From: a virus
Lineage: Duplodnaviria; Heunggongvirae; Uroviricota; Caudoviricetes
IMG/VR virus record: IMGVR_UViG_2526164647_000013
Direction: 5' to 3' (one strand)
Length of the DNA: 10,117 nucleotides
The notes beneath the pieces were generated by a model. That model saw nothing but the letters and a program-made list of their open reading frames with translations, was not told where the DNA came from and made no database searches. The position numbers were made by a program, and so were the translations under genes. This document shows positions 6,176 to 7,939 of the stretch, piece after piece (the stretch's first letter is position 1; every line of letters begins with the position of its first letter).

Positions 6176-6739
6176 TTATTCCACGATAAAATTCCTAACC
6201 GAATTCAAATCCTTCAGACTATTCAGCTCTTCCTTCAGCTCCCGCTGACGGCGATAAATCTCATCGTTGCGATCGACCTGCGCCTGCACCATTGCTGCCG
6301 CCAGTTCTTCCAGTTCCGGCATCGACAGTTTCACCTGCTGATTATCGGCATCGCTCCACGCCATATGTGTTTGTGCTGTGACAGATTTTGCCAGCATGAC
6401 TACCGGGGACAGGCGGCCCAGTGAGTCGGGACCAGCATTCCAGATACGACCGTTCCATTCAAACGTGAACAGCTTCGCCTCCTGTTCTGCGCGCCATGCT
6501 TCAATTTCCTGACGTCTGGCCTCTCTGGCCGCTTCCAGCATTTCTGGTGTCACAGTGAATGGGGCTATCTCACCCCATTTGCCGCTTTGCAGTTCCTGCC
6601 AGATTTGCTGACCCGTCGGAGCGACATCATCAGCGGTGGCTGTGTAGGGGACTGCCTGGTCCCTGTCGTCAAAAAAAACGTCACAGTCTACTGCGCCACT
6701 TTCGGTATAACGGGGATTAATGATTTTTTTAATTTCCAC
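6176..6739 (-). CDS. Phage tail-fibre chaperone / assembly-like protein (my tentative match to a DUF4376-like motif)
   Basis: ORF directly downstream of the tail-fibre gene. I prefer the GTG start at 6739 (Shine-Dalgarno GAGGA 6-7 nt upstream, overlapping the fibre stop) over the longer ORF start at 6799, which lies inside the fibre gene. Contains AWSDADNQQVKLSMPELEELAAAM, which fits a W-DADN...EL..L..M motif I associate with phage tail-fibre accessory proteins. Family assignment is from memory and unverified. Confidence 0.5.
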   Translation of the reverse strand: MEIKKIINPRYTESGAVDCDVFFDDRDQAVPYTATADDVAPTGQQIWQELQSGKWGEIAPFTVTPEMLEAAREARRQEIEAWRAEQEAKLFTFEWNGRIWNAGPDSLGRLSPVVMLAKSVTAQTHMAWSDADNQQVKLSMPELEELAAAMVQAQVDRNDEIYRRQRELKEELNSLKDLNSVRNFIVE

Positions 6740-6749
6740 GGTGCATTCC

Positions 6750-7939
6750 TCACGATGTGCGAATAAAAAGCCCGGGCATTGCGCCAGAGACATGAGCATC
6801 CGGCACCCCGGACAGGGCGCAATATGACCCCGGTAATGAATGCTCTGAACATCCCGTAATGAAAAATTGTGGGGATGCTATATACGTTCCGGTGGGAGTA
6901 CTGGGCACTGAAATCCCCACCGGTCCCAGTCGTGAGCCTCTGTATGACTGCCCCCTGACAAGTCTGATGACTTTATCACCGTCAGCTTCTCCCTGGTACG
7001 CAGCAATAATCAGCCCGCCAATGTCAGGGTCTCCCCATCTGTTGCGGACAGAGCTCGCCACGATTCTGTAAATAATATCTTCTGTGGTTATATTTATTTT
7101 CACCCAGTCAGTCAGTCTGGATATGGGCCAGTAGCGGTAGCGGGTGTGATAAATGGGGCCGTTAATGCCGTAAAAAGTAAGGGATTTGGCTCTGTACCGC
7201 GGTTCTGTTGTCTCAGGGCGTGCATCAGTCCACCGGATGCTGAGCACCCCTTCAAACCGTGTGTCGGGTATGATGATGCCGTAGGGGCCAGCAACGGAAT
7301 ATTCACCTGGCAGCGCATTCCTTACCCAGGCCAGGAAATCACTCTTAGTGTCAAAACGGATAACATCTTCAGGCAGAAAAGCACACCCAAAGCCGAATGC
7401 GCCGGGTATCGCCAGACGGCCTTTTGTCCGGTCGTAAATGTCGCTCTGTGCTTCCATCGTGGCCGCACTTTTCAGCCCCAGATTATCCCGGGACTTCTGT
7501 TGTGCCTTTTCGCCTGCTGCTGCGATTTCAGACAGATGGTTAGCCGTTTTCAGAGTGCCGGTCAGCGCAGCATCAATGTCATTTTTGGCCTGCTCTGCTG
7601 CGCCTGCGCCACCATTTCCTCAAAGCGTTTGACGACATCTGGTTTCAGGTCGCCCTCATCAGGAGCAATCAGAAAGTCATTCAGCGTACCGGGCTTTGAG
7701 TCCTCATATACAGCAATGTCGCCAACGTTGTACTCGTTGTGCCAGTCCTGTTTCAGATACACACCATATTTTCCAGTCCGCGCATGGAAACAGTATTCAC
7801 CATCGTTTCCTGTCATCACATCAGCAACAGTGTGCATCACCACTTCCGGGGTGTTTACCCGGGATTTCAGAATAATATGGTATCCGGACATGGAGATACC
7901 TGCGCCATCAGTCAGCGCACCTGATATCACTACAGACAT
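6750..7939 (-). pseudogene. stf: Side tail fibre (Stf-like) gene, frameshifted
   Basis: N-terminus MSVVISGALTDGAGIS...IAVYEDSKPGTLNDFL...VKRFEEMV matches the conserved N-terminal domain of lambdoid side tail fibres (lambda Stf: ...ISGVLKDG...ITVYEDSQPGTLNDFL...RFELMV). That frame stops at 7562; the continuation (AEQAKNDIDAALTG...MEAQSDIYDRTKG... to the stop at 6750) is in the -1 frame, consistent with a 1-nt deletion near 7600 in a GCGCAGG repeat context. Confidence 0.7.

Follow-up and report, generated by a model that had tools for sequence, protein, structure and literature searches.

How should a phage tail fibre be read when its gene begins with a Stf-type anchor, and both the C-terminal domain and the gene that follows it look unfamiliar? 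This question is raised by a stretch of Caudoviricetes DNA of 10,117 nucleotides, here called the window. An earlier note, made from the letters alone, had read the pair at 6176-7457 as a receptor-binding tip that was exchanged together with its cognate chaperone, and possibly as an uncharacterised host-range cassette.

Several kinds of element are pieced together in the window: IS elements, an interrupted phage integrase, sitABCD and a minus-strand tail-fibre block. Outside this block, the following features are found, the first of them seen in the open reading frame (ORF) listing and Pfam:

52-258: IS3-family fragment
475-651: Arm-DNA-binding part of an integrase split by IS1
662-1359: IS1 within the integrase
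1401-2054: catalytic part of the integrase, beyond IS1
2550-5975: sitA-D (sitABCD, iron/manganese transporter)
8927-9613: IS3-type transposase ORF
9820-10113: second IS1

The tail-fibre block is flanked by IS elements, and sitABCD adjoins it. The nearest loci belong to S. flexneri SFBU1023 (99.8% identical on the sit side) and to a few EIEC-like E. coli, while in E. coli VL7S7 the corresponding block lies between a Rac-like prophage remnant and sitDCBA-uspF-ompN. Because the block is IS-flanked and next to sitABCD, and because both its stf and tfa genes carry deletions (see below), it is the decayed distal end of a Shigella/E. coli prophage, that is, a dead remnant. The block contains, on the minus strand:

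8531..8899, minus strand: C-terminal fragment of fibre 1 (PHROG 454 and 6859 'tail fiber protein', E 1e-36 to 2e-37)
7963..8507, minus strand: tfa of the lambda/P2 type, serving the preceding fibre (PF02413 Caudo_TAP, E 5e-22)
7562..7939, minus strand: 5′ ORF of the stf pseudogene (fibre 2), a Stf-type N-terminal anchor (PF08400 phage_tail_N)
7592..7603, minus strand: junction of a 79-bp out-of-frame deletion in an Ala/Gln-rich linker, with the sole remaining repeat copy, GCGCAGCAGAGC
7386..7619, minus strand: linker and neck in the frame that follows the deletion, translation …AEQAKNDIDAALTG…LGLKSAATMEAQSDIYDRTKGRLAIPGAFGFG
6750..7457, minus strand: tip ORF of 235 aa, a putative receptor-binding tip (PHROG 2636 family)
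6176..6739, minus strand: DUF4376 gene (PF14301), 187 aa, GTG start, a predicted intermolecular tail-fibre chaperone

The ORFs on which the earlier reading was built, 6750-7457 (235 aa) and 6176-6799 or 6739, are indeed present on this strand. The conservation of the Stf N-terminus was also confirmed: the anchor matches PF08400 with 214.4 bits (cut-off 26.6; E 6.3e-64) over profile positions 1-116 of 134. By contrast, the anchor is not joined to the C-terminal domain, as had been claimed. The anchor ORF terminates at the TGA at 7562-7564, and the tip lies in a different frame, open from 7619. When the window is compared by blastn with VL7S7 and SFBU1023, the 79 bp between two GCGCAGCAGA(G/A)C copies are missing here, and they are kept in all the comparator loci fetched, including the syntenic Shigella locus. 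The intact reference is the 421-aa gene of VL7S7, WP_115333404, whose DUF4376 partner is WP_000551125, and the SFBU1023 locus is syntenic with that of the window. The deletion shifts the frame, and fibre 2 is therefore a pseudogene here; anchor and tip do not share a single reading frame in the window, while the relatives are intact at 421-467 aa, so the anchor-tip junction exists only in the ancestral gene. Programmed frameshifting that would rejoin anchor and tip was considered and rejected, since the ORF is uninterrupted in all relatives and the window is simply 79 bp short. In-frame length variants of the same linker occur in other alleles, which makes the linker a deletion hot spot.

The other fibre genes of the block fare no better. 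The upstream part of fibre 1 was lost at the IS3-family insertion, and an NCBIfam scan of the remaining fragment gave no match. An alignment of the window's tfa to that of VL7S7 revealed a 1-bp deletion (a single-base gap) that leads to a premature stop and inactivates the gene. With fibre 2 frameshifted, tfa carrying this deletion and fibre 1 cut by an IS, the fibre system is inactive in the window. The DUF4376 ORF alone is still intact in the block, and what remains of the cassette is a pseudogene remnant from which no function is expected.

The ancestral order of the block would have been fibre 1, Tfa, fibre 2 (with a Stf-type anchor, an Ala/Gln linker, a neck and a tip of two subdomains) and the DUF4376 protein. 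This four-gene layout recurs in phiP27 (an Stx2e phage; L54-L57), Rac-SA53 (tail1-tail4) and pPE4 (gp67-gp70), where a fibre, a Caudo_TAP Tfa, a PF08400-anchored fibre and a DUF4376 protein follow one another in identical order and the genes are intact. At the DNA level, these relatives share 79-87% identity with the window across tfa and the anchor, and 79-82% across the DUF4376 gene, and they carry a different allele of the same tip family (37-38% identity). A search of the literature on phiP27 tail fibres returned nothing specific to L56 or L57. In our opinion, the block probably originated as the tail-fibre module of a Rac/phiP27-like prophage, and the best explanation of the whole combines this origin with a chaperone role for the DUF4376 protein and an exchange that is restricted to the tip.

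The C-terminal domain had been described as unrecognised. This holds for Pfam, NCBIfam and PDB sequences, where the tip has no match (a nanobody returned by the PDB sequence search was a chance-level hit and was discarded), but not for PHROG 2636 'tail fiber protein', which it matches end to end (E 1e-124, profile positions 277-567 of 568). The tip family is, therefore, catalogued and recurrent, though uncharacterised. It comprises 743 clusters at 90% identity in a profile search and 94 clusters at 50% identity in an exhaustive HMMER search of 1.84 billion representatives, and its place is nearly always the very C-terminal end of an enterobacterial phage fibre; of the full-length matches in the 94 representatives, most reach to within ~2 residues of the protein C-terminus. 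The suggestion that the tip is modular was borne out, as the family is fused to several different N-terminal parts, namely PF08400 variants, PF12571 (P2 gpH-type), PF03406 repeats, or a short one or none. Its members in phages include phiP27 L56, Rac-SA53 tail3, pPE4 gp69, SerU-LTIIb stf and gp076 of Av-05, a lytic member of the Vequintavirinae, to which the window's tip is 30-36% identical over 98-100% of its length.

The AF2 model of the tip (pLDDT 75.7), a monomer of a presumably trimeric protein, consists of a neck motif and two subdomains, D1 (~28-120) and D2 (~145-235):

7098..7376, minus strand: D1, alpha/beta module, tip residues ~28-120 (AF2 m1251f41196f9, block pLDDT 79-89)
6753..7025, minus strand: D2, beta-rich C-terminal module, residues ~145-235 (AF2 model)

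The neck motif has the consensus QSDIYDRT.G.LALPGAFGFG in the alignment and the model. D1 may be found alone or internally, for instance in Goslar gp090 and in representatives P0274, P0283 and P0334, and it is duplicated in L111. D2 ends in …LPGSYCALSG…GLFIRTS and is the sole part of the tip that can be detected in PhiR5_1, which has another tip family followed by DUF4376 (hhalign E 7e-5, hmmsearch E 8e-6). The terminal PG[ST][YW]…LFxR motif is common to the tip and to the GER2 and P-EibA fibres; it is the only thing they have in common, as hhalign comparisons of the tip with the ends of these two fibres gave probabilities of 1-2%. In our reading, the tip is a receptor-binding head, a fibre knob of a generic kind with no close relative of solved structure. 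An enzymatic (depolymerase) tip was considered and rejected, as no match to a catalytic family or fold was present.

As for the downstream gene, the claim that it is not of the Tfa type held: no PF02413 match was found (E<=0.1), and hhalign gave a probability of 0.2% against the Tfa of the VL7S7 locus. Judged from its sequence, the partner is unrelated to lambda/P2-type Tfa. It matches PF14301 in its C-terminal part (E 1.6e-15, 57.9 bits, cut-off 25) and PHROG 1141 (E 3e-87), and the C-terminal DUF4376 domain also scores above the gathering threshold in six phage homologues. The W-DADN...EL motif noticed earlier (AWSDADNQQVKLSMPELEEL) is real and is the most conserved stretch of that domain. 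By contrast, an NCBIfam scan gave nothing, and VPS13, returned by the PDB sequence search, was dismissed as a chance-level match. The protein is divided as follows:

6560-6739, minus strand: N-terminal three-strand sheet and helix, residues 1-60
6218-6532, minus strand: DUF4376 domain, residues 70-174

Its AF2 model (mb83d4787cbaf, pLDDT 84), likewise a monomer of a presumably trimeric protein, has three N-terminal strands and a helix, followed by a helix-hairpin-helix-hairpin-long helix arrangement. The proposed start at 6739 was also upheld. This GTG is preceded, 7 nt upstream, by a GAGGAA that overlaps the stf stop codon, and it lies 10 nt past the overlap of that Shine-Dalgarno sequence with the stop. 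It fits the phage homologues (187-192 aa, MQIKEITSPRY…) better than the ATG at 6799, whose equivalent position is the start that RefSeq uses in homologues.

Profile searches went partly against the earlier reading, as the partner falls in a known chaperone family. It belongs to a published chaperone class and is not of an unknown type. In Alteromonas phage V22, the receptor-binding protein (RBP) requires gp27 to become functional, and the mature fibre does not contain gp27 (PMC7289586); both V22 gp27 and A5 gp9 are DUF4376 tail-fibre chaperones (PMC7289586, PMC10579305). In these phages, too, a ~190-aa protein is encoded directly after the fibre gene (V22 gp26/gp27, A5 gp8/gp9), and it is built in the same way: its N-terminal part is variable, and the DUF4376 domain lies at the C-terminal end. 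The published topology, three N-terminal strands and a helical body with hairpins, matches the partner model, and the chaperones were modelled as trimeric caps whose N-terminal strands pair with the fibre head (PMC10579305). For the V22 and A5 chaperones, a resemblance of the fold to the intramolecular chaperone domains of T5 pb1 and K1F has been reported. The profile homology between the partner and V22 gp27 spans 129 columns, including the W-x-ADNQQV motif; its hhalign probability is 77.7% (E 1.9e-5), a moderate value obtained with a shallow profile (Neff 1.3; partner alignment at least 74% identical) against templates that were single sequences. The fibres themselves are less alike. The V22 fibre has a similar neck motif (…LGL.SAAT…GAFG.G), so that this motif is common even to V22 gp26, but beyond it no homology to the window's tip was detected by hhalign, and the terminal LFxR motif is absent from gp26, unlike in the window's tip. 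Additionally, V22 is a myovirus of a marine host; the chaperone role was demonstrated there and is inferred here.

Two other systems follow a related plan. The Stf/Tfa pair of lambda (P2 H/G, Mu S/U) has the PF08400 Stf-type anchor in common with the window and obeys the same general logic: the fibre is a trimer, and its C-terminal tip relies on a small protein from the gene immediately after it. The H-fibre of Campylobacter CJIE1 likewise requires a co-expressed DUF4376 protein encoded downstream (PMC7882524), although its anchor is of the P2 gpH/DUF3751 type and its tip is unrelated to that of the window's fibre.

It could be argued that the downstream ORF is merely a lysogeny-expressed cargo gene at the end of a prophage (like sit, eib or LT-II). 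In many prophages no other phage gene separates it from cargo or attR, and in the window it is the sole intact ORF of the block. However, at every locus its start either overlaps the stop of the fibre gene or is tightly coupled to it, and in lytic Vequintavirinae (Av-05) it lies within the structural module, a place that would be senseless for prophage cargo. It is also homologous to an experimentally shown chaperone, and no promoter-like site was found before it in a scan of 5900-8000 in which promoter and terminator counts were at or under the shuffled expectation. All of this makes the cargo explanation extremely improbable.

If the partner is a chaperone, it must be asked whether it travels with its tip, as had been claimed. 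Their linkage is strict, in agreement with the co-occurrence that had been predicted. The DUF4376 gene lies directly 3′ of the C-terminal tip in 6/6 phage contexts and after the tip in 88/88 complete genome or viral-contig loci, including those of Salmonella and Yersinia. These 88 come from 91 loci, three of which are cut by contig ends, and have a complete tip with the partner start within -80 to +200 nt; many are near-identical Shigella copies, ~17 have tips less than 62% identical to that of the window, and, because the scans started from peptide patterns of the neck and D2, members without those motifs escape detection.

Perfect co-occurrence would be expected if tip and DUF4376 protein were adapted to each other and travelled between phages as one host-range cassette, each chaperone being specific to its tip variant. 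This view also agrees with the lytic Av-05 group, where both proteins have diverged (tip 37-39%, partner 35-36% identity), and with the slightly greater variability of the N-terminal 65 residues of the partner among temperate phages (65-74% vs 69-81%). However, similarity at the DNA level tells a different story. In phiP27, Rac-SA53, pPE4 and others, it runs from 8598 to 7592 (79-87%) and from 7598 to 7386 (~75%; 75-76% over this linker and neck segment for phiP27 and a Salmonella locus), it drops out over the tip, from 7386 to 6754, in the phiP27, Rac-SA53 and pPE4 relatives, and it resumes at the stf stop codon and continues through the whole DUF4376 gene to ~6080 (76-82%). The same resumption, at most ~40 nt from the stf stop, is seen with SerU, Salmonella and viral contigs as well, and the resumed similarity spans most or all of the partner gene. 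From these mosaic boundaries, it follows that the exchanged unit is the ~630-bp tip alone, with the neck and the DUF4376 gene as conserved flanks; the idea that the tip is exchanged together with its chaperone is contradicted. Furthermore, in temperate phages the partners are 67-79% identical whereas the tips are only 33-39% identical, and partners with 75-79% identity are found with tips that share just 33-38%. Other E. coli have, downstream of the phiP27-type tip allele, partners at least 74% identical to that of the window, as would not be expected of a chaperone dedicated to one tip variant. As far as sequences can tell, tip and partner genes do not evolve together, and we regard a co-adapted cassette as unlikely. 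As for the uncharacterised host-range cassette that had been proposed, the partner belongs to the published DUF4376 chaperone family, and the cassette is inactivated in the window.

A further possibility is that the DUF4376 protein is a structural distal cap or adhesin that stays on the fibre and aids receptor recognition, in the manner of Mu Tfa or of the gp38 adhesin of phages T2/S16. PHROG and several GenBank records call the partner 'tail fiber protein', a transient-cap role has been proposed for the A5 and V22 chaperones (PMC10579305), and Mu Tfa stays bound to its fibre (discussed in PMC7289586). Nevertheless, if the partner were itself the adhesin, one would expect it to be the component that varies, and here it is the tip that varies, the partner being far more conserved than the tip it follows. 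Additionally, V22 gp27 separates fully from the active RBP on SEC (PMC7289586), and the partner model consists mostly of helices and exposes no variable loops. A permanent cap or adhesin is, consequently, quite unlikely.

We therefore return to the intermolecular chaperone. In an intact phage of this kind, fibre 2 would trimerise and bind a receptor on the host surface through its variable tip, and its gene is translationally coupled to the DUF4376 gene, whose product would act as V22 gp27 does. The N-terminal beta-sheet of the DUF4376 protein would dock on the conserved D2 and terminal strand (…LPG[ST]Y…GLFxR…), and the docked protein would nucleate folding of the trimer from the C-terminus and then leave, whereas contacts with the receptor would be made by the variable surfaces of D1 and D2. 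Host range could then shift by homologous recombination that replaces the ~630-bp tip, with the neck and the chaperone gene serving as homology arms.

The docking site is proposed from conservation in three tip families only, V22 gp26 being without the motif. A distant DUF4376 subfamily (~35% identity; P-Eib orf-191, PhiR5_1 and GER2) follows other tips, and these keep D2 alone (PhiR5_1) or just the terminal …PG[ST]W…LFQR… motif. It is conceivable, although we hold this quite tentatively, that one DUF4376 chaperone, itself slow to evolve, recognises not the receptor-binding surface but a generic docking module at the C-terminus (D2 and the …PG[ST][YW]…LFxR strand). If so, enterobacterial phages could swap tips freely between the conserved neck and the chaperone gene, and they would possess a plug-and-play system for fibre folding that differs from lambda/P2 Tfa and might be put to use in RBP engineering. 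A generic docking module served by a conserved DUF4376 chaperone is offered as a suggestion, and it is the one mildly new point of this analysis.

In any case, the locus is an ordinary representative of a known kind and not a new system, and its practical value is modest. Tip-only exchange between a conserved neck and a chaperone gene would be useful for annotation, chimeric RBPs and retargeted pyocins, and the last ~90 residues of the tip, which look like a chaperone-associated module, may likewise assist annotation and RBP design. The fibres of many E. coli, Shigella and Salmonella prophages, as well as those of some lytic Vequintavirinae, would depend on a DUF4376 partner and not on Tfa.

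Several genes of the window are disrupted, and insertion sequences account for part of this damage. The features concerned, together with the sit operon, are the following:

52-258, IS3-type fragment
475-651, 662-1359 and 1401-2054, phage integrase, split by an IS1 insertion between its domains
2550-5975, plus strand, sitABCD, convergent to the DUF4376 gene
7963-8507, minus strand, tail-fibre assembly gene tfa (Caudo_TAP), shortened near 8370 by a 1-bp deletion when compared with the E. coli VL7S7 locus
8899-9613, truncation of fibre 1 by an IS3-family element, leaving the last ~122 codons of the gene
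9820-10113, further IS1 copy, beyond the IS3-family element

In the split integrase, the Arm-DNA-binding domain lies upstream of IS1 and the catalytic domain downstream; the deletion in tfa leaves two ORFs of 50 and 123 aa.

The fibre tip itself is composite. Subdomain D1 is found alone in gp090 of phage Goslar (3001-3480 of locus L008), where it is an internal part of a 1324-aa jumbo-phage fibre with a partner of the Caudo_TAP type, and it is tandemly duplicated in the fibre of an E. coli prophage (L111, 138-2504). Since D1 occurs in both of these forms, D1 and D2 are separable modules. The same cassette of tip and DUF4376 gene is also present at dispersed positions, in 4-5 copies per genome, in S. 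flexneri SFBU1023 (L009, L012, L013 and L015) and in 'E. coli' ECMA0423 (L010, L011, L014, L016 and L017). Several of these copies are frameshifted, with matches 701 nt long and partner ORFs that are split.

The Stx2e phage phiP27 (L002, 4489-8097) is a myovirus with a Mu/P2-like contractile-tail baseplate, but its second fibre, which follows the baseplate-attached fibre and Tfa, has a lambda Stf-type (PF08400) anchor.

Parts of the DUF4376 gene are also observed elsewhere. In dozens of Stx-converting phages (Stx1a, Stx2a and Stx2c prophage records), an unannotated remnant near the right end matches its last 41 codons only, with 66% identity (e.g., NC_049943, 56535-56651; NC_011357, 59831-59947). 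In Pseudomonas phages 16Q (46248-46427) and Itty13 (20102-20287), a match to the protein adjoins tail-fibre genes. Because this match is limited to the N-terminal ~60 residues (33-39% identity), it suggests that the N-terminal sheet domain of the partner is a mobile module in its own right.

In the window, similarity to other prophage ends stops at ~6080, and sitABCD begins ~90-100 nt farther on. In E. coli without sit (L104-L108), uspF-ompN directly follows the DUF4376 gene; in P-Eib prophages, eib adhesin genes occupy this position; and in SerU-LTIIb, no further phage gene lies between the partner gene and tRNA-Ser. Cargo appears to be inserted recurrently at this point, downstream of the fibre chaperone gene and immediately inside attR.
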